Source of the DNA: Cetorhinus maximus | Taxonomy: Eukaryota | Direction: 5' to 3' | Assembly: GCF_964194155.1 (NCBI RefSeq) | Contig: NC_135910.1 | Coordinates: forward strand, 10,912,001-10,958,468 | DNA length: 46,468 nucleotides | Part shown: in pieces, positions 2,635-43,861 of the stretch | Layout: each line of letters starts with the position of its first letter | Numbering within the stretch: the stretch's first letter is position 1 | The notes under the pieces: model-generated | The model's database searches: none | Told to the model about the DNA's origin: nothing | Seen by the model: the letters and a program-made list of their open reading frames with translations, nothing else | Translations under genes and position numbers: made by a program

Positions 2635-5600
2635 CTACAAACACAGGAGTTCATTGTCAGTCTGTAATAAACTCGTCTTTTTGACCACTACATTTCCCAC
2701 ATCACCCCCTCCCCCACCAGTCCCAAACCCCCAATGAAGACAGTGATTCCCACTGGGGAACGCCTTGCATAGGTATCAGTTACCCTCTTGCTCTCTCACC
2801 CAAGTGATCGTGCTTCATGTCTGATCCCAGACTTGGCATGACATCAGCCTATTGAAATGTAGGCTTCGTCACTCAAACTCATCATACAATAGGGGTTTCA
2901 CTGGACAGTGATCAAGATCAGGAACCCTGGCTGATCTGATCTCTCTCTCCAGCCTTCATTTTCTCCCTGTCCAAAGACTGAAGCCGGTTGTTTGCCACTT
3001 ATTACTGCCCTAACCGGGATCAGCTTGGACTGGAGGCAAGTCTGGTGTCTTCCTTCTCCCTATAGCCTGGTCCCACAGTGGGTGCAGCGTTAGTGAAGCA
3101 AGAACAGACCATGCTGGAAGCCTACAGCAGGAGGAAGGCCATTAAGACTGTAACACTAACTTGCCCATTCTGTGCTGGCACCGAATGACTTGCTGAGTGT
3201 TTGCAGCATTTTCCATTCTTGTTTCAGGTTCCCAGCATCAGCAGTTTTCCTGCTTATTCGTGGCAGGAGGGAGAGCTAAGAGAGGGACCAGGTTTCTACT
3301 GTGTAAACAGTATTGCACAATCTTCTGAGAGCTCCACGGTGACACCCATTGCCCCAATGTGCCATTTAGTGCCCCAGTATGCCAGCAGACATGAATAAGC
3401 AATAAAGATAAAAGAAATAAGCGTAATGAAGTTAAATGCTCTTACTACTGTTGGCATTTCCACAAGCTCAGTCCCCAGATATTGGATCTCTTTCACAATC
3501 GACTTTGGGAAAAATCCAAGAGTTGTTGACTGCTCCCCGAAATAATCACCTTGAACCTAAATACAGACACTGGTTAGTCTCACAGGCACTGGTCAGTCTC
3601 ACAGGCACAGTCTCACAGGCACTGGTCAGTCTCACAGGCACTGGTCAGTCTCACAGGCACTGGTCAGTCTCACAGGCACTGGTCAGTCTCACAGGCACTG
3701 GTCAGTCTCACAGGCACTGGTCAGTCTCACAGACACTGGTCAGTCTCACAGACACTGGTCAGTCTCACACAAGCACAAGTCAATCTCACACACACTAGTC
3801 TGACTCATAGACTGGTCAGTCTCATATATACTGGTCAGTCTCACAGACACAGTCTCACTGACAGTCTCACAGACATTGGTCAGTCTCACAGGCACAGGTC
3901 AGTCACAAACATCAGTCTCACACAAGCACTGCTCAGCCTCAGAGACACTCATCAGTCACAGACAATCATCAATCATCAATCAGAGACATTGTCAGTATCA
4001 CCCTGGTCAATCTCAAGGAAACCAGTCAGTTTCACACAGGCGCTGGTCAGTAACGTAGACACTGTCTCACAGAGACGTTGGTCAGTCTCACACAGATACT
4101 GGTCAGTTACATAGACATTGGTCTGATACAGACGCTGGTCAGTGTCACAAACTGGTCTGTCTCACAGTAACAGATAGGGAGGCGATAGCATAGTTGTATT
4201 GTTGCTGGACTAGTAATCCAGAGACCCACGGTAATGGTCCGAGGACCCGGGTTCGAATCCCACCATGGCAATCCAATAAAAATCTGGAATTAAAAGTCTA
4301 TTGATGACCATGGAACCCATCTGGTTCACTAAAGGAAATCTGTCATCCTCACCAATGTGGTTGACTCTGAAACGACTCAGCTGTATCAAACCACTACAAC
4401 GTTGCAAAACCTTTCATTCTTCTGAACTCTAGAGAACACAGGCCCAGTCTCCTCACTCACCACCCTGACTTGGAAATACATCACTGTTCCTTCACTGTTG
4501 CTGGGTCAAAATCCTGGAACTCCCTGTCTAACAGCACTGTGGGTGGGTGTACATGGACTGCAGTGACCACCTTCTCAAAAGCAGGGATGGGCAATAAATG
4601 CTGGCCTAGCCAGCGATGCCCCACATCCTGTGAAAGAATTAAAAACGAATGTGGTTCTAAGTCAGGATGGTGAGTGGCGGCTTGGAGAGGAACTTCCAAG
4701 TGCTGGTGTTCCCATGTGTCTGTTGCCCTTGTCCTTCTAGGTGGTAGAGGTTGTGGGTGAAGGAGCCTTGGTTGCTGCAGTGCATCTTGCAGATGGTACA
4801 TACACTGCTCCCACTGTGTGTCAGTGGCGGAGGAGTGAATGTTTAAGATGGTGGATGGGGTGCCAATCAAGTGGGCTGCTTTGTCCTGGATGGTGTTGTG
4901 GGAGCTGCACTCATCCAGGCAAGTGAGGAGTATTCCATCACACTCCTGACTTGTGCCTTGTAGATGGTGGGCAGGCTTTGGGGAGTCAGGAGGTGAGTTA
5001 CTCTCTGCAGATTTCCCAGCCTCTGACCTGCTCTTGTAGCCGCAGTATTTATATGGCTAGTCCAGTTCAGTTTCTGGTCAATGGTAACTCTCAGGATGTT
5101 GATAATGGGGGATTCAGCAATGGTAATGCCATTGAACGTCAAGGGAAGATGGTTAGATTCTGTCTTGTTGGAAATGGTCATTGTCTAGCACTGGTGTGGT
5201 ACGAATGTTACTTGCCTCTTATCAGCCCAAGACTCAATGTTGTTCCGGTTTTGCTGCATTTGGACATGGACTGCTTTAGAATCTGAGTCGTCGCGAATTG
5301 TGCTGAGCATTGTGCAATCATCAGTGAACATCCCCACTTCTGACCTTATGATGGAAGGAAGGTCATTGATGAAGCAACTGAAGATGGTTGGGCTGAGGAT
5401 ACTACCCTGAGGAACATCTACAGTGATGTCCTGGGACTAAGATGATTGACCTCCAACAACCACAACCATCTTCCTTTGTGCTAGGAATGACTCCAACCAG
5501 GGGAGAGTTTTCCCCCTGATTCCCATTGACTCCAGTTTTGCTGGGGCTCCTTGATGCCCCACTCGGTCAAATACTGCCTTGATGTCAAGGGCAGTCACTC

Positions 5601-7909
5601 TCACCTCACCTCAGGAGTTCAGCTCTTTTATCCAGTCTCACAGACACTGGTCGGTCTCACGCAGACACTGGTCGGTCTCACGCAGACACTGGTCGGTCTC
5701 ACGCAGACACTGGTCGGTCTCACGCAGACACTGGTCGGTCTCACGCAGACACTGGTCGGTCTCACGCAGACACTGGTCGGTCTCACGCAGACACTGGTCG
5801 GTCTCACGCAGACACTGGTCGGTCTCACGCAGACACTGGTCGGTCTCACGCAGACACTGGTCGGTCTCACGCAGACACTGGTCGGTCTCACGCAGACACT
5901 GGTCGGTCTCACGCAGACACTGGTCGGTCTCACGCAGACACTGGTCGGTCTCACGCAGACACTGGTCGGTCTCACGCAGACACTGGTCGGTCTCACGCAG
6001 ACACTGGTCGGTCTCACGCAGACACTGGTCGGTCTCACGCAGACACTGGTCGGTCTCACGCAGACACTGGTCGGTCTCACGCAGACACTGGTCGGTCTCT
6101 CAGACGCAGAGTCAATCTTACACAGACACGGTTTAATCTCACAGGCAATGGTCAGCCTCACACCAAAACCAGACAGACGCCCAGTCCAAACACTGGCAGT
6201 GGACCCCCCCCAGCGTTGTGCCGCGGTGAGTGCCAGGACCAGGGCTGAGCGAGGAGCCAGTGATCAGTCTCAGCAGCGAAGACCTAGAACAAACTTTAGT
6301 GGAGACTCTGGTCTCAGACTCACAGTCCCTTGCCAGAAGTTGCGTCCTTTTCCTTTGAGTTTTCCGTAAATATAGACGATCTGCCCCTGGCGAATGTTGA
6401 TAAACCTGCAGTCGGGACCCGTGTAATCGGTCAGCGCTCGAGCCATTGAAATGGGATCTACAAGGGAACAGAGGGTACAGTGTCCAGACTGGGGCACCTT
6501 GAGTTCACAATAACCCGGGCATCACTTATCCACGCTATTGGAGGGGGATGAAACCCCACAACCGTCCATGCTCCTGTTCCCTATCCAAGGCACGCACTTG
6601 GATGCTGGGGGGAGGGGGAGGGAACATATCTTTAAAGAGAACAAGTCTACCAACATCCCCCTGTCTGGAAAAACTCAGCAGGTCTGGCAGCATCGGCGGA
6701 GAAGAAAAGAGTCGACATTTCGAGTCCTTATGACCCTTCAACAGAACTGAGTGATATTAGGAGAGGGGTGAAATAGGTGAAATATTTCACCCCTCTCCTA
6801 ACTATACTTCAGTTCTGTTGAAGGGTCATGAGGACTCGAAGCGTCGACTCTTTTCTTCTCCGCCGATGCTGCCAGACCTGCTGAGTTTTTCCAGGTAATT
6901 CTATTTTTGTTTTGAAATTCCAGCATCGGCAGTAGTTTTTTTTGTTTTTATCCCCTTGTCTGGGCCCACACACACACATCAAGAAAGCTTAGGGCAGGCA
7001 TCAAGCTAGCAGAGAAATAAGGAGCCAGTGATGGACAGACACCGTCTAGCAAAGCCCCTGAACAGACTGGGAGACTGGGGGGGGGGGGGGGGGAATACCC
7101 AGCAAGGATTTTCACAGCGAAATATCAGCTTCTGTTTCTGTTCATTACCCCCCACCCACCCACTGCGGTTCATACTTAAATAAGGTGGGACTTTATTTAA
7201 CACTCTTCAAAATTATGAAGGGTTTTGACAGAATAAATCAGGAGAAACTGTTCCTGTTGGGAGGAGGGGGGGTTGGTAAGGAGAGAATTGGCAATGAAAT
7301 AAAAGATGGGTAACTCTTTCGAGTTATCAACAGATCGCACGTAACTCTTTCGAGTACATTCACAGTTCTTGGTTTCCGGGAAACGCTTTCGAGTTTTCAA
7401 CAGTTACAGATTGCAACTCTTTCGAGTACAATCACAGTTCTTGGTTTCTGGGAGTGGGACATGAACCCACAACCCTCTGATTCAAAGGCGAGGGTGCTAT
7501 GAACTGAGCCACAGCTGACGTTGGTGGGGGGGCGGGGGGGGAAGAGGCGAGGTTTGGATAAGGACTTCTATTTACCCAGCAAGATCTGACTGTCTTAAAG
7601 AGTGGGGGATTCACTAGTAATCATCAAAAGGGAACTTCTTCAAAACTCTTCGGGTTTAAACCAAGACACACCCAGGGGAGGGTGAGCACTCGAGGCGATT
7701 ATTGCAGCTGCATTGACTTTGTCTCTGTCTCTCTCTCCCCCTCTGAGGTTTGTTTACTCACGGCTGCATTCTTCGTCCGCACACAGCTTCCTCTCGGCCA
7801 GTCTGTGCCTCACTTCGCCCCGAGCGGACCAGGCGCCACCGGCGCTGAGAACAATCAGGCAGAAGGTCCAGGTCCAGGTCCAGACTGCCCGGGACACCTC
7901 CCGCTGCAT
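2614..7909 (-). CDS. MIA: Melanoma inhibitory activity / CD-RAP, secreted SH3-like protein, 137 aa; complement(join(2614..2634,3446..3556,6324..6457,7762..7909))
   Basis: Spliced product: signal peptide, then KLCADEECSHPISMARALTDYTGPDCRFINIRQGQIVYIYGKLKGKGRNFWQGTVQGDYFGEQSTTLGFFPKSIVKEIQYLGTELVEMPTVDWDFYC*. All introns are GT-AG, phases agree, total 414 nt. Four MIA cysteines present. Position next to SNRPA matches human. Confidence 0.93.
3446..3556 (-). CDS. MIA: MIA coding exon 3
   Basis: tatttag|GTTCAAGGT...ACAGTA|gtaaga; 111 nt, VQGDYFGE...EMPTV. Confidence 0.92.
3565..4167. repeat. 19-bp minisatellite (CACTGGTCAGTCTCACAGG), decaying rightwards
   Basis: Period of 19 at 3621/3640/3659; degenerate copies continue to about 4165. 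Confidence 0.9.
4177..4410 (+). mobile_element. tRNA-derived SINE
   Basis: tRNA-like head with B-box GGTTCGAATCC near 4251; similar to the SINE at 23476. Confidence 0.75.
4455..5630 (-). mobile_element. CR1/L2-clade LINE 3' region (minus 4655-5630; its 3' tail lies on plus at 4455-4650)
   Basis: ORF 4867-5181 (LRVTIDQKLNWTSHI...IYKAQVRSVMEYS) is an RT C-terminal region. Matches the copy at 27670-28300. Confidence 0.85.
5633..6105. repeat. Perfect 21-bp minisatellite (CAGACACTGGTCGGTCTCACG), about 22 copies
   Basis: Identical units read directly; source of the QTLVGLT / RRHWSVS ORFs. Confidence 0.97.
6324..6457 (-). CDS. MIA: MIA coding exon 2
   Basis: cttgtag|ATCCC...GGGACT|gtgagt; 134 nt. 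Confidence 0.93.
6669..6949. mobile_element. Fold-back Penelope-derived insertion (inverted terminal segments, two hammerhead-like motifs)
   Basis: About 6666-6775 is nearly the reverse complement of about 6784-6895. Flanked by ATCCCC(C/T)TGTCTGG at 6655-6668 and 6950-6963. Confidence 0.8.
7440..7517 (-). mobile_element. tRNA-derived SINE head fragment
   Basis: On minus, AGCTGTGGCTCAG...GGGTTCATGTCCCACTCC, similar to the head at 39745. Confidence 0.6.
7762..7909 (-). CDS. MIA: MIA coding exon 1 (signal peptide plus KLCADEECS)
   Basis: ATG at 7909 (in-frame upstream ATGs at 7921 and 7990 are possible); donor AGCC|gtgagt. Confidence 0.85.
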
Positions 7910-8355
7910 CTTGCCTCCCATCCAGCGCCAGAAGTCCACAACCCCTCGGAGTCCGGGGCGAGAGTGGAGGCAGGCTGGGTGAAAATGCACAGTCTGTGCA
8001 CCCCACCACCAGGAGCTGGTTTTTCTTTAATGAGCCAACAAATCTGTGGAATGTTCTTCCTGTCAGGAACTGGCTCCAATCAAAACAAAATAAATAAATC
8101 GCAACAACTGCCTTTTTTTTTTAAACAAAAAGCTAACTCTAAAGCACCCTCTGGGCACGGAATAAACATTTTTTCCCTAATTCTGATGTTTGAGTTGGAT
8201 TGAGTTTCTGATTGGAATGGTTTCGTTTTAACAAGTGCTCTCTCTCTTCTCGACAGCGTATTAGAATGAACCAGACTGATAATACCCCTCACACCCGACA
8301 GTCCCTTTCATACCTTGTGCTGGGGATGGTACACAATGTGTCGGTGTTATGCAAT

Positions 8356-9595
8356 CCCAGGACAGGTACAGCACGGGGTTAGATACAGAGTAAAGCTCCC
8401 TCTACACTGTCCCCATCAAACACTCCCAGGACAGGTACAGCACGGGGTTAGATACAGAGTAAAGCTCCCTCTACACTGTCCCCATCAAACACTCCCAGGG
8501 CAGGTACAGCACGGGGTTAGATACAGAGTAAAGCTCCCTCTACACTGTCCCCATCAAACACTCCCAGGACAGGTACAGCATGGGGTTAGATACAGAGTAA
8601 AGCTCCCTCTACACTGTCCCCATCAAACACTCCCAGGACAGGTACAGCACAGGGTTAGATACAGAGTAAAGCTCCCTCTACACTGTCCCCATCAAACACT
8701 CCCAGGGCAGGTACAGCACGAGGTTAGATACAGAGTAAAGCTCCCTCTACACTGTCCCCATCAAACACTCCCAGGGCAGGTACAGCACGGGGTTAGATAC
8801 AGAGTAAAGCTCCCTCTACACTGTCCCCATCAAACACTCCCAGGACAGGTACAGCATGGGGTTAGATACAGAGTAAAGCTCCCTCTACACTGTCCCCATC
8901 AAACACTCCCAGGACAGGTACAGCACAGGGTTAGATACAGAGTAAAGCTCCCTCTACACCGTCCCCATCAAACACTCCCAGGGCAGGTACAGCACGAGGT
9001 TAGATACAGAGTAAAGCTCCCTCTACACTGTCCCCATCAAACACTCCCAGGGCAGGTACAGCACAGGGTTAGATACAGAGTAAAGCTCCCTCTACACTGT
9101 CCCCATCAAACACTCCCAGGACAGGTACAGCACGGGGTTAGATACAGAGTAAAGCTCCCTCTACACTGTCCCCATCAAACACTCCCAGGACAGGTACAGC
9201 ACGGGGTTAGATACAGAGTAAAGCTCCCTCTACACTGTCCCCATCAAACACTCCCAGGACAGGTACAGCACGGGGTTATATACAGAGTAAAGCTCCCTCT
9301 ACACTGTCCCCATCAAACACTCCCAGGGCAGGTACAGCACGGGGTTAGATACAGAGTAAAGCTCCCTCTACACTGTCCCCAAACACTCCCAGGGCAGGTA
9401 CAGCACGGGGTTAGATACAGAGTAAAGCTCCCTCTACACTGTCCCCAAATACTCCCAGGGCAGGTACAGCACGGGGTTAGATACAGAGTAAAGCTCCCTC
9501 TACACTGTCCCCAAATACTCCCAGGGCAGGTACAGCACGGGGTTAGATACAGAGTAAAGCTCCCTCTACACTGTCCCCAAATACTCCCTGGGCAG
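8356..9595. repeat. 69-bp tandem repeat, about 18 copies (last four are 66 bp)
   Basis: Unit CCCAGGACAGGTACAGCACGGGGTTAGATACAGAGTAAAGCTCCCTCTACACTGTCCCCATCAAACACT; explains the 431-aa ORF. Confidence 0.97.
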
Positions 9596-9892
9596 GAGCA
9601 GCCAGGTTAGCTACAAAGTACAGCTCTCCTTCCCTATTACACCAATGTAATACACTGTTGCCAGACTAGCAGTCCCATGGCTGCTTTAAGTGCCAATTTC
9701 CAGCTGTTGGCTGGAGCTGCAGACCTGCCCACTCAGCAGGTTAAGTCCCATAAATCAGACAACCAGGCAAAGCTGTTTATGAACCCCGCTCTCAGATCCC
9801 CACATCCATCAGCACCAACTGGCAGCATTAACTCTGTAGAACCAAGCGCCAGAAATAAAGAGCAGTGAGGGAGGAGGCACTAAATGCAGGAA

Positions 9893-12347: not shown

Positions 12348-12369
12348 CATCGGTTCATTCAGTAAGTTT

Positions 12370-12416
12370 GAAAGCTCCAGGTGCAATGTCACTGAGACTC
12401 TGGGTGAACAGCTTTC
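12370..12416 (-). promoter_or_regulatory. U1A polyadenylation inhibition element (PIE) in the SNRPA 3' UTR
   Basis: Minus-strand RNA GAAAGC UGUUCAC CCAG A GUC UCAGU GAC AUUGCAC CUGG A GCUUUC: three stems and two 7+1 internal loops, one with the perfect U1A box AUUGCAC. Same layout as the human PIE. Confidence 0.88.
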
Positions 12417-12908
12417 TTATGGTGTGATTAAGCCAAACTGTTGCTTGCCTCAGCCAGTCAGACACATTCATTCAAAAATATGGCCAAACGGGGGCAACCA
12501 AATCTAAAATAATGCCATGAGTGCAGATTTAAAGTCCATCCAATTTCTTCAGTCAGGATATGGCTGCTCCTGGATTATCATTCAAAAAAAAAAAGGGAGG
12601 GGGAATTATTTAATTTGATGGACCCAGGGTGGAGTAGAGCAAGGCGACGGTGAAACACCCACACCGCAATCCGAACAGCCTTCAGACCACAGGAAGCTCG
12701 CCTTAGCAGCATCTCTCAGAGACTCACCCGGGTCTGAACAATCATCCGATGGGCAGGGCAAAGCTGAGGAGCCTCCTCGTTCAACACTTACCTGAAGCAT
12801 CAGAACTTTTAAATCTAATACAGACCAGTTACTGCACAATTTAAAAAAATGAAAACAACAGCTTTGGAAAACAAAGCCGGAATTAACCAGTTTGATCCTC
12901 CCGACCCC

Positions 12909-17866
<4,958 letters not shown>

Positions 17867-20037: not shown

Positions 20038-20700
20038 TATCTATTCCAATCCCATTTTCCAGCGCTTGGCCCGTAGCCCCGCACGCTATGGCGCTTCAAG
20101 GGCTCATCTAAATGCTTCTTAAATGTTCACGTGTTGTGTGGGAAAAGCTTTTTCTCACGTCGCACTCGCTTCTCTTGCAAACCGCTTTAAATCTGTGCCC
20201 TCTCGTTCTTGGTCCTTTTTACAAGCGGGAACAGCTTCACTTTGTCTAGCCCCCTCATGATTTTGAGCATCTCTATCAAATCGCCTCTCAGCCTTCTTCT
20301 TTCCAAGGAGATCAGTCCCAGCCTCTCCAATCTATCCTCATAGCTGAAGTTTCTCATCCCTGGAACCATTCTTGTAAATCTGTTCTGCACTCTCTCCAAT
20401 GTGTTCACATCCTTCCTGTAATATGGTGCCTAGAACTGTACACAATATTCCAGCTGAGATCTAATGAGTGTCTTATATAAATTCAGCATAACCTCCATGC
20501 TCTTGTACTGTATGCCCCTATTAATAAAGCCCAGGATACAATATGCTTTATTAACTGCTCTCTCCACTTGTCCTGCCACCTTCAATGATCTACGCACATA
20601 TATACCCAAGTCTTTCTGCTCCTGTACCCCCTTCAAAATTTCACCACTTATTGTCTGCCCATGTTCTTCCTACCAAAATGCATCACCTCACACTCCTCTA
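20014..20700 (-). mobile_element. CR1-type LINE 3' fragment
   Basis: ORFs 20187-20408 (LERRRLRGDLIE) and 20430-20636 (LYKTLIRSQLEYCVQF). Confidence 0.9.
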
Positions 20701-21520
20701 CATTGGGAGCCCAAACGCAGACTGGGTGACCGCTGTGTGGAACACCTTCGGTCTGTCTGCAAGCAGACCTTCCTGTCGCTTGCCATTTCACAACATATCA
20801 ACCTGCTCTCATGCCCACATGTCCGTCCTTGGCCTGCTGCAATGTTTTAGTGAAGCCCAACGCAAACTGGAGGAACAGCACCTCATCTCCCGATTAGGCA
20901 CTTTACAGCCTTCCAGACTTAACATTGAGTTCAACAACTTCAGACCACGAACTCTCTCCTCTATTTTCACCCCTTTTTTAATCCCCTTTTTTCAAAATTC
21001 TTTTTTTAAATTTTTTATCCACTTATTTTTATTTATTTTTGTTTTTATTCATTATTTTATCAATTTTTATCCCCTTTTTTTTCATTTTCTACCCTTTTCC
21101 CCACCACCGCCCCCTCCCCCACACCCACAAGGGCCATCTGTCACTTTTTCTATGTTGTTCTTTCACAGAGCACTGACCCTTGTTCTGCTATTAACACATT
21201 CTGCTCTCTTACCTTTATGCCACTATCAGTACCTTCTTTATTCCTTACCACTTTGTCCTTTTGCCCATGACATCTTTGTCAATCTGTCCTTAGCCCCCAC
21301 CTATCGCTGACCTTCTATCCAGCTTCACCTGCACCACCCCCCCTTAAACAATATAAATTTTGTCACATTTCTACTTCTCTTTAGCTCTGAAGAAGGGTCA
21401 TATGGACTCGAAACATTATCTCTGTTTCTCTCTCCACAGATGCTGTCTGACCTGCTGGGTTTTTCCAGCATTTTCTGTTTTTGTTTCAGATTTCCAACAT
21501 CCGCAGTATTTTGCTTTTAT
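20700..21520 (+). mobile_element. 5'-truncated Penelope-like element (GIY-YIG C-terminus, 3' UTR, hammerhead-like motif near 21382-21422)
   Basis: EAQRKLEEQHLISRLGTLQPSRLNIEFNNFR, nearly the same as the ORF end at 34135. Confidence 0.88.
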
Positions 21521-21529
21521 CCAGTGACC

Positions 21530-29000: not shown

Positions 29001-30735
29001 CTCCCCCTGCTCTTCCTCCAGTAGTATCACGGGATCTTCAATACCCACCTGAGAGGACCTGTTTTGTGTCTCATCTGAAAGACGACACCTCTGACCGTGC
29101 AGCACTCCACTTGTCTCTGGCGTGCAATTTGAACTGAGCCACAGCTGAAGTAGAAGTTTCATATGTTGAATTGTGAGGGATGTGTCTCAAAACATTTAAT
29201 ATCTTTAGCAGATCCCCTGAAGCAATTATAAAACGAATAATTCTCAGGATGTGGGCATCATTGGCAAGGCCAGCATTTATTGCTCATCCCATGTTCCTCT
29301 GTGTTAATCATACATTGTGTTTAATCATATGTAGATGGAGGGTTTTAACTCACTTGAACACATTGGAGACACTTATTGAAACTGGTAGTGTTGAGTTTGG
29401 AGATGTATGCTTATAATGATTCACTTCGAAAGTAAACATAAGACTTCAGCTCTAAAGAAGAGTCATACAGACTCGAAACGTTAACTGTTTCTCCACCGAT
29501 GCTGTCAGACCTGCTGAGTTTTTCCAGCGTTTTCTGTTTTTACTTTATATTATAGAAGACTAAGTATAGATTGGCTTCAGTACTATCTTCACCAAGTGGC
29601 TTTTTGGAGTAAAACATTCTGGAGTAGTAATTTAAAACATCTGTGTGACTGAAAGATTGTTAATGTCCTGAGATTGGAGTCAACCATTGGTCAGACTGAG
29701 TAAGACTGCAGATTAAGGAAGGAATTAATGAACCAGTTGGGGTTTTAATTCCAGATCTTTTTTCATAAATATATTTCAAATTCCTAAACTGCCATGGTAA
29801 GATTAATTAGTTCTAGTTAACATAACCACTACATTACATACGAACTAGGAGCAGGAGTAGGCTACTTGGCCCCTTCAAGCCTGCTCCGCTATTTAATAAG
29901 ATCATGGCTGATCTGGATGTGGCCTCAACTCCACGCTCCACCTATCCCTGATAACCTTTGACTCCCTTGTTAGTCAAGAATCTCCCCTTACCATACCTTG
30001 TTGCAATTTTCTTGGCAAACCCAGCCTGTTGCTTTAAGATCAATGTTCAGTTACTATCCCTATGTAAAGATGATCTAAATAGGCCCCAAGGTTAATTGTT
30101 GTTTGGTGAGTTTACAGATTGCTTTCAGAAAAGGACATTGTAAAAGTAGCTTTGGCACTTATTGACAATAGACACACTCAAGATGTTAAAAGCAAAGAAC
30201 TGCGGATGCTGGAAATCCAAAACAAAAAACAAAAATACCTGGAAAAACTCAGCAGGTCTGGCAGCATCGGTGGAGAAGAGCACAGTTGACGTTTTGAGTC
30301 CTCATGACCCTTCAACAGATGTTTATGTGAATAGGTTGATTCAGTGCTTGCTGGCTGTTTAGCAGCTTATATATTGCTTCTGATTGCTGTGCAGGAGTGC
30401 TGCTGGGACTGAAGTGTGGCCTGCCAGAAGATTTCTACGAAGATGATCCTGATATTCCTGGGCTTTTCCATCGGCGTGCGAACATGCCTGGAGCCGGCTA
30501 CCCTGAGGACTGTGTTGTCGAGACACACCTGCTTGCCAAGCAAGGGAAGAGTCTGAAGTACCAGTTGTGGCAGTACGAGCAAGTACATCAGAGTAACATG
30601 CAGCTGACAGAGTTCAGCCCAAAGCGAGAGGGTGACGGAACTGCCTACGTGGTCCCTGACGGGGGTGTGGAGTCAGGATTGTGTGGGGCTGTGATTCTTC
30701 TCCAACCTTTGTCTCAGGAACAAAACAAAAGTTAG
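22810..30735 (+). CDS. ACTMAP: Actin maturation protease (C19orf54 / UPF0692), 325 aa; join(22810..23051,24108..24176,24799..24923,25489..25618,26423..26493,30395..30735)
   Basis: Poly-Pro N-terminus; PSLIQDGPQCGLVALWMA (catalytic Cys motif); GYTVQGEMFS; VLIPYDEDFNHEPCLRKGHKAHWAV; AKQGKS. Phases consistent, 978 nt. Head-to-head with SNRPA as in human. Confidence 0.92.
23476..23825 (+). mobile_element. tRNA-derived SINE with LINE-derived 3' tail
   Basis: B-box GGTTCAAATCC; the tail GGGATGGGCAA...GCCAGCGATGCCCACATC is shared with the LINE 3' end at 4584-4640. Confidence 0.8.
24108..24176 (+). CDS. ACTMAP: ACTMAP coding exon 2
   Basis: ttttcag|TTTCAGT...CCACA|gtgagt; FSKELNWLLINKYVPSLIQDGPQ. 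Confidence 0.9.
24799..24923 (+). CDS. ACTMAP: ACTMAP coding exon 3
   Basis: ccttcag|GTGTGGC...TCTCAG|gtatct; CGLVALWMAG...GEMFS. Confidence 0.92.
25030..25470 (+). mobile_element. Deu-domain-type tRNA SINE (SacSINE1/AmnSINE-like)
   Basis: tRNA head plus GTGGACGTAAAAGATCCCATGGCA core. Related copies at 28915-29130 (-), 30780-31120 (-) and 39745-40225 (+). Family name is from memory. Confidence 0.7.
25489..25618 (+). CDS. ACTMAP: ACTMAP coding exon 4
   Basis: attccag|GTGCG...ATACC|gtatcctt; ANMVKLAEEVF...GYPVLIP. Confidence 0.9.
25619..26422 (+). other. U12-type (minor spliceosome) GT-AG intron of ACTMAP
   Basis: 5' site GTATCCTT; branch site TTCCTTAAC at 26405-26413; no polypyrimidine tract; the in-frame AG is 10 nt after the branch A. 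Confidence 0.9.
26423..26493 (+). CDS. ACTMAP: ACTMAP coding exon 5
   Basis: YDEDFNHEPCLRKGHKAHWAVVS; donor CAG|gtgggg. Confidence 0.92.
26885..27195 (-). mobile_element. CR1 fragment
   Basis: ORF 26883-27140 (QVQKVIRMANGMLAFIAKGLEYKS). Confidence 0.8.
27670..28300 (-). mobile_element. CR1/L2-clade LINE 3' end
   Basis: MEYSPLAWMSAAPRTLKKLDTIQDKAA; same family as 4455-5630. Confidence 0.85.
29445..29545 (+). mobile_element. Penelope terminal fragment with decayed hammerhead-like motif
   Basis: CTAAAGA A GAGTC ATACA GACTC GAAACGTT AACTG, followed by GATGCTGTCAGACCTGCTGAGTTTTTCCAG. Confidence 0.75.
30188..30318 (-). mobile_element. Penelope terminal fragment
   Basis: Same terminal sequence as 6669 and 33661; AGATGTT on both sides (30181, 30317) may be a TSD. 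Confidence 0.75.
30395..30735 (+). CDS. ACTMAP: ACTMAP last coding exon
   Basis: gtgcag|GAGTGCTG; LLAKQGKSLKYQLW...GGVESGLCGAVILL...*. Confidence 0.92.
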
Positions 30736-33414: not shown

Positions 33415-33660
33415 TCCTATTCTGGACACCCCACTTTGGAGAAGAACGTGATGGCATTGTAACAGGTACAAGAGAAATTTACCAGAATGGTTTCAGAACT
33501 GAAGAAATACAGCCATGTAGAAGATTCGAGAAGCTGGGATTATTATTAGAGAAGGTTAAGAGGAGATTTGATAGAGATGCTTAAAATCATGAAGGGCTTA
33601 AATGGCGTAAATAAAGAGATATTGCTTCCAAAAGGTCAAAAACAGAGGGCACATAATTAA

Positions 33661-35201
33661 AAACAAAAACAGAATTACCTGGAAAAACTCAGCAAGTCTG
33701 GCAGCATCGGCGGAGAAGAAATCAGTTAACGTTTCGAGCCTTCATGGCCCTTCGGCAGAACTGGAGCATAGTTAGAAGAAGGGAGAAATATAAATTGGTT
33801 TAAGGTGGGTGGGGGGGGGGGGGGGGGGGAGTGACACATTGAGGGTGTGGTGTGGTGATTGTGGAGATGAGCAGATAATCAAAAGATGTCACAGACAAAA
33901 GGGTCAAAGAGGTGTTGAAGGTGGTGGTATTTGTCTGAGAAAAGTGCTAATTAAGAATGGAAGACAGGATATTCAAAGTACAGCTCTAGTGGGGGTGGGG
34001 TGGAAAGACTAAAGGTTTTAGTTTTAGATTTAAAAATAATGGAAATAGGTGGGGAAAGAAGAATCTATATAAATTATTGAAAAAAAAAGCGGGGCGGGGG
34101 GGGGATGAAACGGGGTGGGGATGGGGGAGGGAGTTTAAGATCTAAAGTTGTTGAATTCAATATTCAGCCCGGAGGGCTGTAAAGTGCCTAGTCGGAAGAT
34201 GAGGTGCTGTTCCTCCAGTTTGCGTTGGGCTTCACTGGAACAATGCAGCAAGCCAAGGACAGACATGTTGGCAAGAGAACAGGGTGGAGTGTTAAAATGG
34301 CAAGCGACAGGGAGGTTTGGGTCTTTCTTGTGGACAGACCGCAGGTGTTCCGCAAAACGGTCGCCCAGTTTGCGTTTGGTCTCTCCAATGTAGAGGAGAC
34401 CGCATTGGGAGCAACGAATGCAGTAGACTAAGTTAGGGGAAATGCAAGTGAAATGCTGCTTCATTTGAAAGGAGTGTTTGGGCCCTTGGACGGTGAGGAG
34501 AGAGGAAGTGAAGGGGCAGGTGTTGCATCTTCTGCGTGGGCATGGGGAGGTGCCATAAGTGGGGGTTGAGGAGTAGGGGGTGATGGAGGAGTGGACCAGG
34601 GTGTCCCGGAGGGAACGATCCCTACGGAATGCCGTCAGGGGGGGTGAAGGGAAGATGTGTTTGGTGGTGGCATCATGCTGGAGTTGGCGGAGGATGATCC
34701 TTTGAATGCGGAGGCTGGTGGGGTGATAAGTGAGGACAAGGGGGACCCTATCATGTTTCTGGGAAGGAGGAGAAGGCGTGAGGGAGGATGCGCGGGATAT
34801 GGGCCGGACACGGTTGAGGGCCCTGTCAACGACCGTGGATGGAAAACCTCGGTTAAGGAAGAAGGAGGACATGTCAGAGGAGCTGTTTTTGAAGGTAGCG
34901 TCATCAGAACAGATGCGACGGAGGCGAAGGAACTGAGAGAATGGGATGGAGTCTTTACAGGAAGCGGGGTGTGAGGAGCTGTAGTCGAGGTAGCTGTGGG
35001 AGTCGGTAGGCTTGTAATGGATATTGGTGGACAGTCTATCATCAGAAATTGAGACAGAGAGGTCAAGGAAGGGAAGAGAAGTGTCAGAGATGGACCATGT
35101 GAAGATGATGGAGGGGTGGAGATTGGAAGCAAAATTAATAAATTTTTCCAGGTCCCGACGAGAGCATGAAGCAGCACCGAAGTAATCATCGATGTACCGG
35201 A
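33661..35201 (-). mobile_element. Young 5'-truncated Penelope-like retroelement (RT C-terminal half plus GIY-YIG endonuclease)
   Basis: Stop-free frame 35199 to 34135: RYIDDYFG...LPFLDL...YKPTDSHSYLDYSSSHP...NLVYCIRCSQCGLLYIGETKRKLGDRFAEH. 11-bp TSD CACATAATTAA at 33650-33660 and 35202-35212. Confidence 0.93.
33723..33763 (-). ncRNA. Minimal type I hammerhead-ribozyme-like motif (variant core)
   Basis: CAGUU CUGCCGA A GGGCC AUGAA GGCUC GAAA C GUU AACUG: 5-bp stem I, 5-bp stem II, palindromic ACGU in place of stem III. Confidence 0.6.
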
Positions 35202-35899
35202 CACATAATTAAGTTGATTGTCAAAGAACTTGAGGCAACATGAGGAATTTTAAAAATGTGTAATGAGTGGTTAGGATTTGGAATGCACTGCCTGATAGGG
35301 TGGATAGATTTGACTGTAGCCTTCCAATTTCCTTTTGATAACTACTTAAGAAAAAATTTCAGGAATATGGGAAGGATTGGGGAGTGAGACCAGCTGAATT
35401 GCTCTTTGAAAGAGATGATGTAAACTCAATGGGCAGAATGACCTCCTTCTGTGCCATACTATCCTATGACATTGGGAGTACAAACAGGGGACGACAGCAG
35501 TACTCTCCTTACAATGCGGGAGGCCATTCGGCCTATTGTGCCTGTGCTGACTCTATCTAATTAATCCCACCCCTATGCTCTTTCCCCTTAGTCCTGCAAA
35601 CTTCTCCTAAGTATTTATCCAATTTCTTCTCAGAAGTTAATCAATCTGCTTCCACCAGCCTTTCAGGCCAGTGCATTCCAGATCACGGTCACATGTTGCG
35701 CAAGAACATTTTTCATTTCCCCGTTGGCTCCTTGCCGATTATCTTAATCCTACATCATCTGGCTACTGATCCATCTATCAACAGGTTTCATAGAACTTGT
35801 ACAAGGCAATTGCTACCGACTGTTTCCCCTCTGCCTCCACCTAGCAGTTCAGAGAGGAGTAACTGAAAAACAACACTAGGAGTACAAGAGTCTTATTGG

Positions 35900-37010
35900 G
35901 AGCTTATAGTTAGATGGAAATGTAAGCTGTGAGGAGGACACAAAAGCAGCTGCAAAGAGATAGAGACAGGTTGAGTGGGCAATAAGGTGACATGTGGGTA
36001 AGTGTGAGGTTATTCACCTTGGCAGTACAGTACTAGCAGATTTTTTTTTTTAAAAAGGCAAGAAACTTTTAAATATTGATCTTCACAGGGGCCTGGGTGT
36101 ACCGCACTCATACAGGGAACAGAAAGTTAGCATGCAGGTATAGCAAGCAATTAGGAAGGCAAACGGCATGTTGGCCTTTATTACAAGGGGATTAGAGCAC
36201 AAGAATAAGGAACAAAAACAGAAATTACCTGGAAAAACTCAGCAGGTCCGGCAGCATCGGCGGAGAAGAAAAGAGTTGACGTTTCAAGTCCTCATGACCC
36301 TTCGGCAGAACAGGTCATGAGGACTCGAAACGTCAACTCTTTTCTTCTCCGCCGATGCTGCCGGACCTGCTGAGTTTTTCCAGGTAATTCTGTTTTTGTT
36401 TTGGATTTCCAGCATCCGCAGTAGTTTTTTGTTTTTATCACAAGAATAAGGAAGTCTTGCTACAAACGTACAAGGCTTTGATGAGACCACACCTGAATAC
36501 TGTGCACAGTTTTGGTCTCCATTTTTAAGACAGGATATACTTGCTCTGGAAGCGGCACAGTGAAGGTTCACTAGGTTGGCTCCCAGGATGAGAGGGTTGT
36601 CCTGTGATGACAGGCCGAGTAAATTGGGCCTACACTCCCTGGAGTTTAGAAGAATGAGAGGCGATCCCATTGAAGTACACAAGATTCTGAAAGGGCCTGA
36701 CAGGGTCGATACTGAGAGGTTGTTTCCCCTGGCTGGGGAATCTAGAACACGGGGGCAGGATCTCAGCAATAAGGGGCTTGTCCTTTAGGACTGAGATGAG
36801 GAGAAATTTCTTCACTCAAAGGGTTATAAATCTTTGGACTTCTCTACCCCAGGGGGTTGTGCATGCTTGAGTATATCAACGGATATCAAGGAGGGAAAAT
36901 CAAGGGATTTGGGGAGTTGACGTGAAATGGGAGTAGAGGCCGAAGTTTAGCATGATTGTATTGAATGGCGGAACAGGCTCGAGGAGCTGTCTGCTCTACT
37001 CCTGCTCCTA
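35900..37010 (+). mobile_element. CR1 3' fragment interrupted at 36213-36438
   Basis: LGLHSLEFRRMRGDPIEVHKILKG; TTGAATGGCGGAACAGGCTCGAGG tail. Confidence 0.88.
36213..36438. mobile_element. Fold-back Penelope-derived insertion
   Basis: About 36211-36299 pairs with about 36313-36401. Perfect 15-bp TSD CACAAGAATAAGGAA at 36198-36212 and 36439-36453. Confidence 0.88.
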
Positions 37011-38579: not shown

Positions 38580-41500
38580 CTGAAAAAGCATTTGGGTAGA
38601 AGTTAAGAGGCCTCTGGGATGGCACAACGCTGAATGCACTATCCAACGATACCGAGCTGTACAGATCAAGGTGGTCAGTGCCAAGCTAACTGATCTCAGT
38701 CGGGGCGGGGTAGCAATAGTTATGAGCTGATCTGCCTTCGGGAAAGGAACTCAGCCATGATTTCTGCTGCAGGAAAGTGAATACGTGGATGTCTGACAAG
38801 GTCAGAATTGGTGGAACAGACCCTCATAGCTGAATGTGTAAGCTCACTTACAGAGGGCAAACAGACACAAGGCAGAAGGTAGCCACAAGGGGGGGATATG
38901 TACCCTAGAGTAGGTATCCTTGGACCTGTACCCCAGGGAGAGAGTCAGCATCCATGGAACCACATCCCCGAGAGAATCAGTACCCCAAGGCAGGTCGTGG
39001 TGAAAAGATATTGATGGGTAAATGTTAAGTTGTAAAGTGAACAAGGAAATAAGTTAAATAACTAAACCCACCATGAACACCACAATTGAGATGCAGCACC
39101 AGCCCAGAGCAACGTAATATCCCGTTCTCCCAAACATCAGCCCAGCCATGACTCCAGTGATCATCCTGCGGGTAAGAAATCAGACATTTTACATACAACC
39201 CCACACCCGCTTAACTGTGAAGACATCGGCGACCACAGACCCGCCCGACTCCATCGCTCACAAACCCACCCGACATACTTGTACCCAGCAAAAGCAACAA
39301 GGTCGATGGTGGTTAAGTCTGTGTTCACCGTGACCAGGTAGAGGCTGAGCAGGATGGCGAGCACCTCAATGACCAGCCAGATTAATGCTGAGCTGGCCTG
39401 CATCCCCAACACCTCTGGAGAGAACCTGTAGGAGAGGAAATAAGCTAGTGAATGCTGGGCGTGCATAAGCATCTGCCTGGAAACCCACGGCACAACAAAG
39501 CACTGGAGATCAAGATACTGTCGTGCAGTGACAATGCAGGTTTGAACACTTGGCCAATTCTAGTCACTTTGGGATGGAATTACTTCTGAACCGAATCCTC
39601 TCTCATACACTCCCCAGTAGCCAGCTACAAAGGTCCTGATATGGCACTTGTTTTGGGGTGGGAGAATGAACATAAGTAATTAAGCACAATAAAGAATGAC
39701 AAAATAGAGGAAGTGCTTGAAGCTTGAAACAAGACAATGTTCCTCAGCTGTGGCTCAGTGGGTAACACTCTCACCACCGAGTCAGAAGACTGTGGGTTCA
39801 AATCCCACTCCAGAGACTAGAGCCAGATACAAAATCCTGGCTGACATCCCAGTGCAGCACCAAGGGAATGTGGCAGTGTTGGAGGTTGTTGATAATTTTA
39901 AAACCAATAATTTGGGGATTTATTGCAAACGAGTTGTACCTCAAATCGAATTTAACAAGGTGCTGTCTTTTGGATGAGATTTTGAACTGAGACCCTAACT
40001 GCCCTATCAGGTGGGTGTAAAAGATCCCATGGCACTATTTCGAGGGGGGGGAACTTTTCCCTGACCAATATTTCTCCCTCAACCAACATCATTAAAAAAA
40101 AACAGATTGTCTGGTTGCTATTGTGGGAGCTTGCTGTGTGCAAATTGGCTTCCGCGTTTCCTACGTTACAATATTTCAAAGGTACTTCATTGACCGCAAA
40201 GCATTTTGAGATGTCCTAAAGGTCACGCAAGTTCTTTCTTAGTGCCAATACCCCATCCCACATATGAAGCATAAAATTTAAAAAAACGTAAATGATGCTG
40301 AATCCCAAAGGCCATTCTACTTAAACACACAACAACACTCCTGGCTAGAATAGAAAGCAGGATGCGTGATCGTGTGACTATTGCGACAAGAGGATTCTCA
40401 CCTGCTTTGAGTTCCAAGAGCAAACCCAGCTACCAATAAATATGTGATAAACGCCATTGCTGGAGAGAGAGAGAGAGAGAGAGAAATGGCCATAAGACAA
40501 GAGTGTGGACAGTGAGATACAGCACATCAGCCCATTAAACCAGCTTGTGACGTTATTACTGCAAATTCAAGAGTATTTAATGACCTTCTTTCACAAGGTA
40601 GTAATCACCAACCAATCGAAATGTGTAGTCACACAAATACAACGAGCCTTACTTAAGCATAATTTAAATCTCTGAACCCTCGGAACTTGGGAGGGGGCAG
40701 TGAGCAAATGCACGTGACCGAGCTGTACAGATCCACTTTCCACTTCTGGTTTGAGACTTGTTAACGGATTTGACCCAGGATGGAAATAATTGTCAGGAAG
40801 ATATAATAATTTTTATAATGCTATTGGAATAGTAATAGTGGGGTCTATGCCTGTGTGTGACTTAATTGAATTAAAGGCAGCTGGTCCGATGGCTTTGATG
40901 TATCAGAAGGTAAAGTAGGTTTGAAATGTTAAGTAGGTAAACATAGGTATTAAGGGAACACTTGAATTTTTAAATAAACCAGAGTAGATTGATTTCAAAA
41001 GAGAGAGTGAAATATTACACTTAGCCAGCTAAGAAACAGTGTGTTTATTTTTCCCCAAAGCTTACTGGTAAAATTGGTACTATGAGAGATTTTTATTATT
41101 AGAAGGGTAAAGTCCAAAGACATAGTGAAACAATGGGAATTTGCATTCAAAGGGGAAAATATGTATAAAGGAGAGAAGGTTGTGTGTAAGGTCAGGCATT
41201 GTAAGATCTAACAAGTGTGAAATCCTCCAGCATGTAAGCCTCAGGCTGCTGTCTACAAAGAACTGAAGTTAAGAAACCTCGCTTTGAATTGGATTGTTCA
41301 GGGTATCATGTTTCTTTGCCTGGGTCTTTTAAAATCTGTGTGTCTCACTGTTGCCTTAACAAAAGTGTAACTGGGAGTTAGATTAATTAGGAGATTTAGA
41401 AATTATCGTAGTAATAATTTGTAGATCAATGTGTGTGCTTAAAATCATTTCTTCTATTAATAAAGGTGTAATTTAGTTTTGTAAGAAACCTGTAAGACTT

Positions 41501-43861
41501 GGTGGTCTTATTACTGAATTCACGGCACACATGTCAACGTTTATACAAATTACAAAACAGTTGTGGCAGTTGTTTCAAGCTTCCCTTTGAGATTTGAGCA
41601 GCTCAGCATTTATCATCAGCTGTGCCATAACATATTAAAATTCAGTGTGAGTGAACAAAACGGTGAGAGTTCCCGTTCCTGATTGCTTCCGTATACCCTG
41701 TTGGAAACTGCATGCGTGGATAGGGAGGTGGGAAAGGAATTGGGCTCATCTACAATGTTGTACATGGTTAACTAACCCGTTGACACTCACAGACATGAAG
41801 ACATCAGAGGGCAGCCAGTGCATGAGGAGCTGTAGCTCTAAGACTCGTTTACAAATTGAAATGAAGATCTCTGGAAATCTTGCTGGCAATTTTGTAAATT
41901 CTATAGGTCAAGACAAAGCCAATTTCAGTTTTTGGAGACAGACCTTCCCTATACTGCTCAGAGCGAAACCTCTCCATAACTAGGAAGTGATTCACGATTC
42001 ACTCTCTCTAAAGCGTATAGGTAAAAATCACCCTGCAATAGCAGGAGTTTCCATCACTCTTGTGTGTATTGAACCTCACAATATATGTTGATTACAATAA
42101 ATACAAAAGGAAGATACTGCAGATGCTGGAATTCTGAAGTAAAAATAAGAAAATGCTAGAAATACTCAGCAGGTCTGGCAGCACCTGTGCAAACGGACTT
42201 AGAGTTAGCGTTTCAGGTCTGTTACCTTTCATCATATCGGAGTTGATTAGAGTGTCAGCCCCCTTGCCCACCCAGTCCAGAAACACTTCCCAGAATGGTT
42301 AATACTATAGATAGTACTGATAGCATAGAGGTAGCACCTACCTGGAATATATAAATCAGGAGCATTCACTTCAACCCGAGGGGCCACGGGGCTGTCCTGC
42401 TGGTATCGTACTTCCCAATTCTGTCAACATCAACAATCAGTCTGATGACAATCAGTGCATAACCAACACGGGCTGAACCTGTCACTTCAGGAGAAAGTAT
42501 GTCGATCTCCAGCCCATCAACCAGCTGATCTCCTGAAGTGTTGTTCATGGTACAAATGCATTAAAAATAACGATCTGAGAGAATTTCCAGGCACCAGACC
42601 TCAGGAAGGACATATTGGCCTTGGAGGGAGGGCAGTGTAGATTTACCAGAATGAGACCCGCACTTCAAGGAGTTGAGATTACAAAAACTAGGGTTGCACT
42701 CTGTGGAATTTAGAAGGTTGAGATTTCATCAAAGTATTCAAAATGTTAAGGGGAACAGATAAAGAAGATTTGGAGGAACTATTTTTGATGGCTGGGGAGT
42801 CTAAAACTAGGGGAAATGGTCCACAAATTATAGCCAGGATTTTCAGGAGGGAAATTAGGCAATAGTTCTACACGCAGAGTGGTGGTTTGAACTCTCCTCT
42901 GCAAATGGTGACTGACGTGAGATCATTTTAAACTATGACTGATAGACTTTTGTTATCAGAAAGTGTTAAGGGCCATGGAGCAAAGTTGGGTATATGGGGT
43001 TAGGCTGCAGATCAGCCATGATCTCAGAATAGTGGAACAGCCCTGAGGGGCTACATGGCCACCTCCTGTTCCTGTACAATTGACTCTTGCTTCTCCCCTG
43101 TAAATTTCCACCTGTCCCTCAGTTTGGAATGTTGACATCCCTCTAGCTTGTCTTCCGCCCCCTCCCCAAACTGTTACTGCAGTCCCACACCATGTGGTTG
43201 ATTTTTAATGCCTTCTGGGTGATTTGGGATGGGCTTTACCGGTGCAAAGAACACCACTAAAACAAAAAAATCCCTCCACACAAACCAGCAACAGATACCA
43301 AATACCAAGAACAGTCCTGGAGCTCTACAAACGAGGCAGTGCATGTGCCTCCAAAAGTGGTTCCATTTTCCTGCCGCTAAGTGCAAAACACCCCCAGCAA
43401 TCAAGGTAAATGGTTGCTTGCCACCGGAAACCTCATTTAACAAAGAGATTGTGCAACGTGAAGGGCCATGTTTTACAACACGCCCCCAAGGGCGGTCCTC
43501 AATCGAACTGCAGATCTGTATTTGAGAACTGATCTAGCCAGTGAACCTATTCGCAGCGTCTCCCACTGACCACTGACTGACAAGTGCAACGCCGTGCCTC
43601 TCCCCCAGCAACTCAACGAAGATTTGAGAAGCCCTTCACCCGTGGAAGGCCCAGTGAGTTTCAAGGCTACAGCACAACTCGCTTCTTAACCGTGGTGTTA
43701 CCTGCTACAGCTTTGCTTCCCTGACTAATGCTCTTTAAGCTGAATCACCAGCTTACCTGGTGCATGTAGGGAAAGATGAGAAGTCCCAGCTTCTTTCCGA
43801 CATAAATGGTGTCCACAGCAAAATAGTATTTCAATTTGCTCACTGGAATAAATCGATCAAT
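38424..43861 (-). CDS. YIF1B: Yip1-interacting factor homolog B, 3' part (5' exons outside the window); complement(join(38424..38579,39072..39165,39270..39425,40402..40459,42342..42420,43757..43861))
   Basis: [28 protein letters not shown]...[14 protein letters not shown]...[22 protein letters not shown]...[29 protein letters not shown]. Segments such as [13 protein letters not shown] and [11 protein letters not shown] match YIF1B rather than YIF1A as I recall them. Confidence 0.92.
39072..39165 (-). CDS. YIF1B: YIF1B exon
   Basis: [31 protein letters not shown]; ccgcag acceptor, gtgggt donor. Confidence 0.92.
39270..39425 (-). CDS. YIF1B: YIF1B exon
   Basis: [14 protein letters not shown]...GYKYVG; ctacag acceptor, gtgggt donor. 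Confidence 0.92.
39745..40225 (+). mobile_element. Deu-domain-type tRNA SINE
   Basis: AGCTGTGGCTCAGTGG...GGTTCAAATCCC head and GTAAAAGATCCCATGGCACTATTTCG core. Confidence 0.72.
40402..40459 (-). CDS. YIF1B: YIF1B exon
   Basis: [20 protein letters not shown]; the acceptor tract is a (TC)n microsatellite (40462-40484). Confidence 0.92.
40791..41632 (+). mobile_element. Possible solo LTR
   Basis: TG...CA ends (TGTCA / TAACA), TATA-like GTATAA near 41163, AATAAA near 41459, imperfect flanks TAAT/TATT. Confidence 0.3.
42342..42420 (-). CDS. YIF1B: YIF1B exon
   Basis: [26 protein letters not shown]; tgacag acceptor, gtaggt donor. Confidence 0.93.
42575..43075 (+). mobile_element. Degenerate CR1 3' fragment
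   Basis: GGAATTTAGAAGGTTGAG...GCAGATCAGCCATGATCT...CCTCCTGTTCCT. Confidence 0.75.
43757..43861 (-). CDS. YIF1B: YIF1B exon
   Basis: [35 protein letters not shown]; ctgtag acceptor, gtaagc donor. Confidence 0.93.

Follow-up and report, generated by a model that had tools for sequence, protein, structure and literature searches.

What becomes of a hammerhead ribozyme when its core loses the adenosine at position 6 and the retroelement that carries it continues to multiply? The question is raised by a 46,468-nt stretch of the Cetorhinus maximus genome (NCBI RefSeq assembly GCF_964194155.1, contig NC_135910.1, positions 10,912,001 to 10,958,468 of the forward strand), referred to here as the window, in which a hammerhead-like motif of Penelope-like elements recurs at eight sites. 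The motif at 33723..33763 has the core CUGCCGA, and the hammerhead search criterion given in PMC8557442 is CUGANGA. A sequence-only reading of the window had offered two options, i.e. an atypical core that is still active or a family that spreads without self-cleavage. The preferred reading, held at a probability of about one half, is a weakened hammerhead with some predicted activity that would still be under selection. The two options need not exclude each other, because breakpoints indicate uncut templates for most insertions while the remaining core looks maintained.

The insertion that holds this motif comprises the following features:

33723..33763, minus strand: intact minimal hammerhead-fold motif with a C6-C7 core (CUGCCGA); position 6 is window position 33755
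33661..35201, minus strand: 5'-truncated Penelope-like insertion with reverse transcriptase (RT) thumb, Cys linker, GIY-YIG, 3' untranslated region, hammerhead and tail, with 11-bp duplications
34135..35201, minus strand: stop-free remnant of the open reading frame (ORF), from a YIDD motif to the stop codon; GIY-YIG E 3.5e-4, under the Pfam cut-off
33661..33722, minus strand: tail 3' of the motif, a 3' end common to copies and likely the region where reverse transcription starts (by analogy with PMC11167929)

The motif may be classified as a variant of the minimal Penelope hammerhead fold, a predicted ribozyme that departs from the canonical core at A6. Its predicted cut lies between 33728 and 33727, its motif type is the commonest in the sample (20 copies), and a monomer fold with stems I and II is predicted within 0.2 kcal/mol of the minimum. 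In a tree of the endonuclease region the ORF remnant is sister to other C6 copies. The "open ORF" described earlier is indeed stop-free; it is also 5'-truncated, beginning with the RT YIDD motif and comprising about 355 codons.

Position 6 across the genome and in source elements

Genome-wide, 61,990 exact motif copies were found, and the reversed-pattern control gave 0 in each search, so that the motif greatly exceeds chance expectation. Among these copies, which have one stem II frame and an otherwise intact core, position 6 is A in 12,190 (19.7%), U in 27,816 (44.9%, by subtraction from 49,800 non-A copies), C in 21,351 (34.4%) and G in 633 (1.0%). The genome-wide check did not find a young CUGANGA majority; the canonical core is absent from 49,800 of the 61,990 exact copies, the one at 33723 included. 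Within the young frame, 201 copies have lost G5, compared with 23,327 intact ones (0.86%), which sets decay at ~0.9% per site. G6 is found mostly on A6-type backgrounds, amounts to ~5% of A6 and behaves like decay, and U6 and C6 exceed it 34-44 fold. Random decay is excluded by these counts as the origin of U6 and C6, and the A6 change therefore came from the source elements, as had been proposed from the window; the youngest subfamilies and the full-length elements are C6.

Two loci, L101 and L102, contain full-length elements arranged as partial tandems; the repeated unit is 3,291 nt long, a partner lies inverted, and a 917-aa ORF is open. The motif occurs in both terminal repeats (pseudo-long terminal repeats, pseudo-LTRs), and both hammerheads read CUGCUGA, i.e. 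C6. The internal repeats show 0 mismatches over 711 nt (with one 25-nt gap) and over 316 nt. The 917-aa ORF of L101 matches RVT_1 (E 2e-6) and GIY-YIG (E 4.5e-4), both slightly below Pfam cut-offs, and its translation contains a DKG motif, CPRRRCNTC (a CX4CxxC linker), two Cys before YIG and later His residues (CCHH). It has 853 homologs, the best-ranked of which carry PF00078; among the 120 listed, the highest identities are to Chiloscyllium proteins (69% and 65%). The features of an endonuclease-bearing Penelope-like element are present, e.g. a single ORF with RT and C-terminal GIY-YIG, a pseudo-LTR tandem, an inverted truncated partner (also seen in the window pairs at 6.7 kb and 36.3 kb) and a tail at one end. 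Compared by motifs rather than by a clade tree, the L101-type element appears to follow the Neptune/Nematis-type pattern. Another C6 element, at L106:3262-7500 (minus strand), has an open frame of 1,412 codons with ends matching the 917-aa ORF, probably through an in-frame internal duplication.

The source elements changed in the order A6, U6, C6, from oldest to youngest, as based on a tree and on divergence. In an older family, which differs in stem II, 91 of the first 100 copies listed (of 353) carry A6, as counted by eye. The tree, built from the endonuclease region only (61 rows, with 28 of 89 endonuclease-bearing copies left out as too short and the rows L132_6980 and L151_6346 mis-assigned to a neighbour ORF), forms a ladder from AA through AU and UU families, the first letter being position 6, to one supported C6 clade. 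This clade of 28 rows (support 100/97) comprises nearly all C6 copies and three UU copies. Within-family fourfold divergence is 0.146 for AA (n=8), 0.080 for AU (n=7) and 0.064-0.073 for UU (n=15, 5 and 3), and among C6 families 0.034 (CC, n=4), 0.025 (CC, n=10) and 0.013 in the youngest (CU, n=10). There are exceptions to this order: one CU copy lies outside the C6 clade, most backbone forks are weak, and one CU family (n=4, divergence 0.104) breaks the age sequence.

Beyond this genome, a comparison of window 33640-33800 with a separate sequencing run showed contigs of another organism with CUGUUGA (one at depth 7.75; 19 records, 0.63 agreement), which hints weakly at a U6 held in common with a second species. 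A metagenome scan returned two motif matches, both A6 and both lacking the tail of the shark element, which says nothing on other sharks.

Variation in the remaining fold

Selection on the rest of the hammerhead fold is likely, judging from how the copies vary. With a 7% threshold, none of the 14 other core columns varies among 114 non-A6 copies, against 20 of 38 flanking columns (p = 0.0003); with a 15% threshold, 44 copies that were retrieved independently of the core give 0 of 14 against 18 of 38 (p = 0.0009). At position 17 the 114 non-A6 copies have only U (74) or C (40). The extra base after A9 is present in 113 of them, G10.1 and C11.1 in 113 and 106, and the palindromic 15.2 and 16.2 in 108 and 107. 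GAAA, A15.1-U16.1 and H17 are fixed in all subfamilies, and both core CpGs are kept in every subfamily despite ~5% decay in copies.

Compatible variation in stem II, first described from the window copies, holds across all 16 aligned motif types, where the stem is paired in 100% of cells and two pairs have changed on both sides. Stems I and II together are paired in 95.6% of cells; in stem I, A has changed to G opposite U, while 7 of 16 rows fail to form the outermost pair of this stem. By our count, seven of eight stem changes keep pairing (p = 0.009 if 0.4 would do so by chance). The rows used for covariation share ancestry and had been selected by their stem II pairing, which counts against the preferred reading, and the shuffle result is not to be taken as a probability. 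The older family (L171-L185) has A10.1-U11.1 and G10.2-C11.2, and the younger lineage has G-C followed by A-U or G-U, so that the pairs are swapped.

Two other accounts of the motif's letters were rejected. Three ACCU copies had suggested a subfamily with a broken ACGU; among 1,179 copies of that frame without G16.2, the first 100 listed carry 92 A, 6 T and 2 C (by eye), and the changes, mainly to A, represent scattered CpG decay. Coding constraint on the motif was likewise set aside, since neither A6 families nor early U6 ones have the loop ATG, and some C6 copies have GTG in its place. Separately, the terminal repeat of L101 and its relatives shows fast turnover of non-core positions where fourfold change in the ORF is only ~0.10.

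5' ends of short copies and the rival readings

The 5' ends of insertions offer a record of the RNA from which they were copied. Among 165 young copies, 157 could be placed and 8 could not; 51 of those placed are short, with 20 starting at -36 to -31 relative to the cut and one at -3 to +2. No 5'-end cluster at the cut site, as a cleavage footprint, was found in the young copies nor in 122 older ones. A second method recovered the same stem I cluster in non-inverted copies, older A6 families too, where poor upstream references may inflate it. Genome-wide, 936 of the 23,327 copies in the young set carry a purine where the element has a pyrimidine at -36; of 30 such cases inspected, 29 are true junctions (19 of them inversions). 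In a check for an untemplated, cap-derived G, the base at -36 is G in 42 and A in 58 of the first 100 copies listed (by eye), and ten non-inverted junctions have 7 G and 3 A, some templated by target or partner. The cluster falls on the A of YYAGTT at the stem I edge, inverted partners included, with window examples at 30319 and 33762. This YYAGTT resembles an initiator, and the cluster is likely a transcription start; the alternative is a reverse-transcription stall after stem I. Whichever the cause, 5' ends at stem I imply that the RNA behind these copies was continuous through the cut site, and most insertions therefore likely derive from uncut RNA.

A start at the A of YYAGTT would place the whole motif at +1 to +35, and this bears on a rival explanation, in which the motif no longer cuts and its letters are kept by a core promoter (an initiator at stem I and a downstream element near ACGT) together with a protein-bound RNA fold. 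The absence of a breakpoint cluster at the cut site agrees with this explanation, as do the internal promoter of Drosophila Penelope with its downstream element RGACGTGY (PMC2377424) and the high copy number of Naiad elements without canonical hammerheads (PMC8557442). A DNA promoter, however, leaves unexplained the paired changes in stem II, the A-to-G changes found only opposite U and the restriction of position 17 to U or C. GAAAC at +28 to +32 is also off what we take to be the usual downstream promoter element consensus, and the explanation depends on a transcription start that is itself inferred. It is regarded as rather unlikely.

Several results weigh against a weakened hammerhead that is still selected. 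At the 7% threshold, four CpG core sites exceed the limit in the 44 core-independently retrieved copies (4 of 14 against 24 of 38, p = 0.033). In the young frame the loop G is as invariant as G5 (202 against 201), and this comparison does not separate core from loop. When 30-nt flanks are added at both ends, all 7 copies folded, the A6 copy included, have a predicted probability of only 0.00-0.19 for stem I, and the predicted dimer (-19.5 kcal/mol) lies 5 kcal/mol above the best dimer fold. The stem I pile-up is shared with older A6 families, so uncut templates are not specific to the variant. In other ribozymes, A6C lowered a fast hammerhead to 3.55e-6 per min at 0.3 mM Mg2+ (PMC7151607), and mutants of the CUGA turn had low activity in a deep scan (PMC9901934). 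No compensating change was found near A6U; position 6 is the sole column fixed differently between 18 AU and 30 UU copies. Constraint is also not significant when silent ORF sites are the yardstick: on the same path 16 of 167 non-CpG and 2 of 10 CpG silent sites changed, so that 1.76 changes are expected at 14 core sites and 0 are seen (P = 0.17).

This last comparison suits a ribozyme that has been dead since A6U, a neutral relic with too little time for other core changes, given that the first U6 family and the youngest C6 families are only ~0.10 changes apart per fourfold site. Position 6 has changed twice and position 7 repeatedly, as expected of free sites. Neighbouring positions, however, are far more changed on the same path (14 of 38 flanking non-core sites at -60 to +18 of the cut, p = 0.011), every subfamily retains the core CpGs despite the decay seen in copies, and the stem changes preserve pairing. 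A relic is judged improbable.

The opposite proposal is that U6 and C6 cores are fully active, with a dimer, a bound protein or another metal ion replacing the A6 contacts. In Mn2+, A6C hammerheads have rates of 0.18-0.31 per min (PMC7151607). Cleavage of a Penelope hammerhead can be protein-assisted (PMC11167929), and the non-A6 lineage is the more numerous one. An efficient cutter, however, should leave starts at the cut site, where 1 of 51 was seen, and the compensating change that might be looked for near the motif is missing. Full activity is given little credence.

Under the preferred reading, that of a weakened and still-selected hammerhead, the source elements of a very abundant Penelope-like lineage passed from A6 through U6 to C6, which likely left a slow ribozyme that selection retains. 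In agreement with this, a natural A6C hammerhead is slow in Mg2+ but cuts well in Mn2+ (PMC3088659, PMC7151607), and the Penelope hammerhead of the lizard Anolis cuts only with its protein, uncut RNA being the main substrate (PMC11167929). Transcription would begin at stem I, cover the ORF and continue beyond the second hammerhead; reverse transcription would be primed within the tail, 65-105 nt beyond the predicted cut, if the element behaves like that of Anolis (PMC11167929). A cut at the downstream hammerhead would separate the priming site from the template, so that slower cutting would favour copying; a slower ribozyme giving more copies fits the larger numbers of U6 and C6. Any residual activity would depend on two motifs pairing via ACGU, probably with help from the protein that the element encodes, and it may matter only in a rarer step, such as the formation of circles (proposed in PMC4209133) or of new tandem sources. 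One may suggest, tentatively, a class of pyrimidine-6 hammerheads (~49,000 copies) tuned to the retroelement, which would lie at the transcript start and cut slowly, needing both pairing and a bound partner (the element's protein or another metal ion); most RNA would then stay intact for copying, and a small cut fraction would seed new tandem sources.

Other copies in the window and related hammerheads

Re-reading the window located one recurrent motif at all eight sites reported earlier, with the described layout at each; the motif is wholly intact only at 33723. CUGCCGA at 33723 and 36274 and CUGUUGA at 6710, 6810 and 30283 were read again as before, and the remaining cores are CUGAAGA at 21382 and CUAAAGA at 29447, the copy at 42202 being older and decayed. 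Departures from the consensus 3' core are GAAAUGU at 6710, GAAGCGU at 6810 and GAAACAU at 21382; the 36274 copy has GACUU, and the 30283 copy has AAAACGU and lacks most of the stem I 5' strand. The copies that are not intact reflect CpG decay, one core change or 5' truncation. They are distributed as follows:

6665..6949, both strands: head-to-head short U6 pair (motifs 6710-6749 minus and 6810-6850 plus), with the longer tail on the plus copy only
20693..21528, plus strand: older A6 copy, its motif at 21382-21422, that retains an endonuclease remnant
29447..29553, plus strand: older short A6 copy, G5 decayed to A
30219..30319, minus strand: short U6 copy with its 5' end at the stem I edge (-32), G12 decayed
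36213..36438, both strands: head-to-head pair of a C6 copy (36274-36311, minus) and a plus-strand copy ending inside stem II, with a 15-bp target duplication
42138..42236, minus strand: decayed copy of an older family, stem II AGGU/ACCU

Further partial copies lie at about 36313-36340 (plus), 24284 (minus), 24320 (plus) and 28683 (minus). The target-site duplications reported earlier were recovered, with 11 bp at 33650-33660 and 35202-35212 and 15 bp at 36198 and 36439; the pair at 6655 and 6950 measures about 11 bp and contains one mismatch. An Rfam scan of the window with E up to 5 gave seven matches and no hammerhead family, A6 copies included, which is expected because the motifs are without helix III.

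Host features were also noted in the window. The minus-strand regions 12349-12419 and 12880-13049 hold an exon, the translation of which we take to resemble the U1A C-terminus, and, just downstream of it, a stretch that Rfam matches weakly to the U1A polyadenylation inhibition element (36 bits against a gathering score of 50); this is likely the 3' end of the host gene SNRPA. An exon of a YIF1-family host gene lies at 39164-39559 on the minus strand (Pfam E 3.4e-17). Near-perfect long tandem arrays are present at 444-1146, 5531-6202 and 8214-9643, with units of 37, 21 and 69/66 nt.

Metazoan Penelope-like elements carry minimal hammerheads (Cervera and de la Pena 2014, PMC4209133), with which the shark motif shares its place in the terminal repeat, a stem I of 4-5 bp, an extra base between 9 and 10.1, G10.1-C11.1, a palindromic 15.2-16.2 and the absence of loop III, and the elements share the presence of many families per genome and of head-to-head pairs. 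It differs at position 6, where 80% of exact copies and the youngest sources carry U or C; the core variant described there is U3-A8 in Schistosoma. A natural C6 within an otherwise standard core is known from the Bcep176 phage hammerhead (Perreault 2011, PMC3088659; Naghdi 2020, PMC7151607). Whereas that is a single phage example, the shark has 21,351 C6 and 27,816 U6 copies in a vertebrate retroelement without helix III, and C6 was reached via U6.

The Poseidon element PAc of Anolis (Frangieh 2024, PMC11167929) is similar in the internal start of reverse transcription in the tail, the hammerhead upstream of that tail, the lack of an RNA-end trace at the cut site and an uncut main substrate. 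PAc belongs to the Poseidon clade and its ORF begins inside the hammerhead, whereas the shark ORF begins ~150 nt downstream and has a Cys linker; unlike in PAc, the evidence for uncut templates in the shark element consists of genomic breakpoints. With Neptune/Nematis-type elements (PMC8557442) the shark element has in common one ORF with RT, DKG, a CX4CxxC linker and, at the C-terminus, GIY-YIG with CCHH, along with partial tandems, an inverted truncated partner and a tail at one end.

A literature search found no report of A6U, nor of non-A6 hammerheads in Penelope-like elements or sharks, although earlier alignments or supplements might list some. A6C was already known from one phage ribozyme, and the pile-up of 5' ends at stem I, not at the cut, is new. 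Lunse, Weinberg and Breaker reportedly dealt with the minimal hammerheads of metazoan Penelope-like elements in 2017.

Hammerheads are near-universal in Penelope-like elements, barely cut in vitro and were dispensable in the one reconstituted system. The breakpoints described here provide genomic evidence for mostly uncut templates. Searches that require CUGANGA would miss four fifths of the shark copies, and elements described as "hammerhead-less" may hold relaxed cores. A6, U6 and C6 form a dated natural series in otherwise matched, recently active elements, which allows a direct test of whether Penelope-like elements need the hammerhead.
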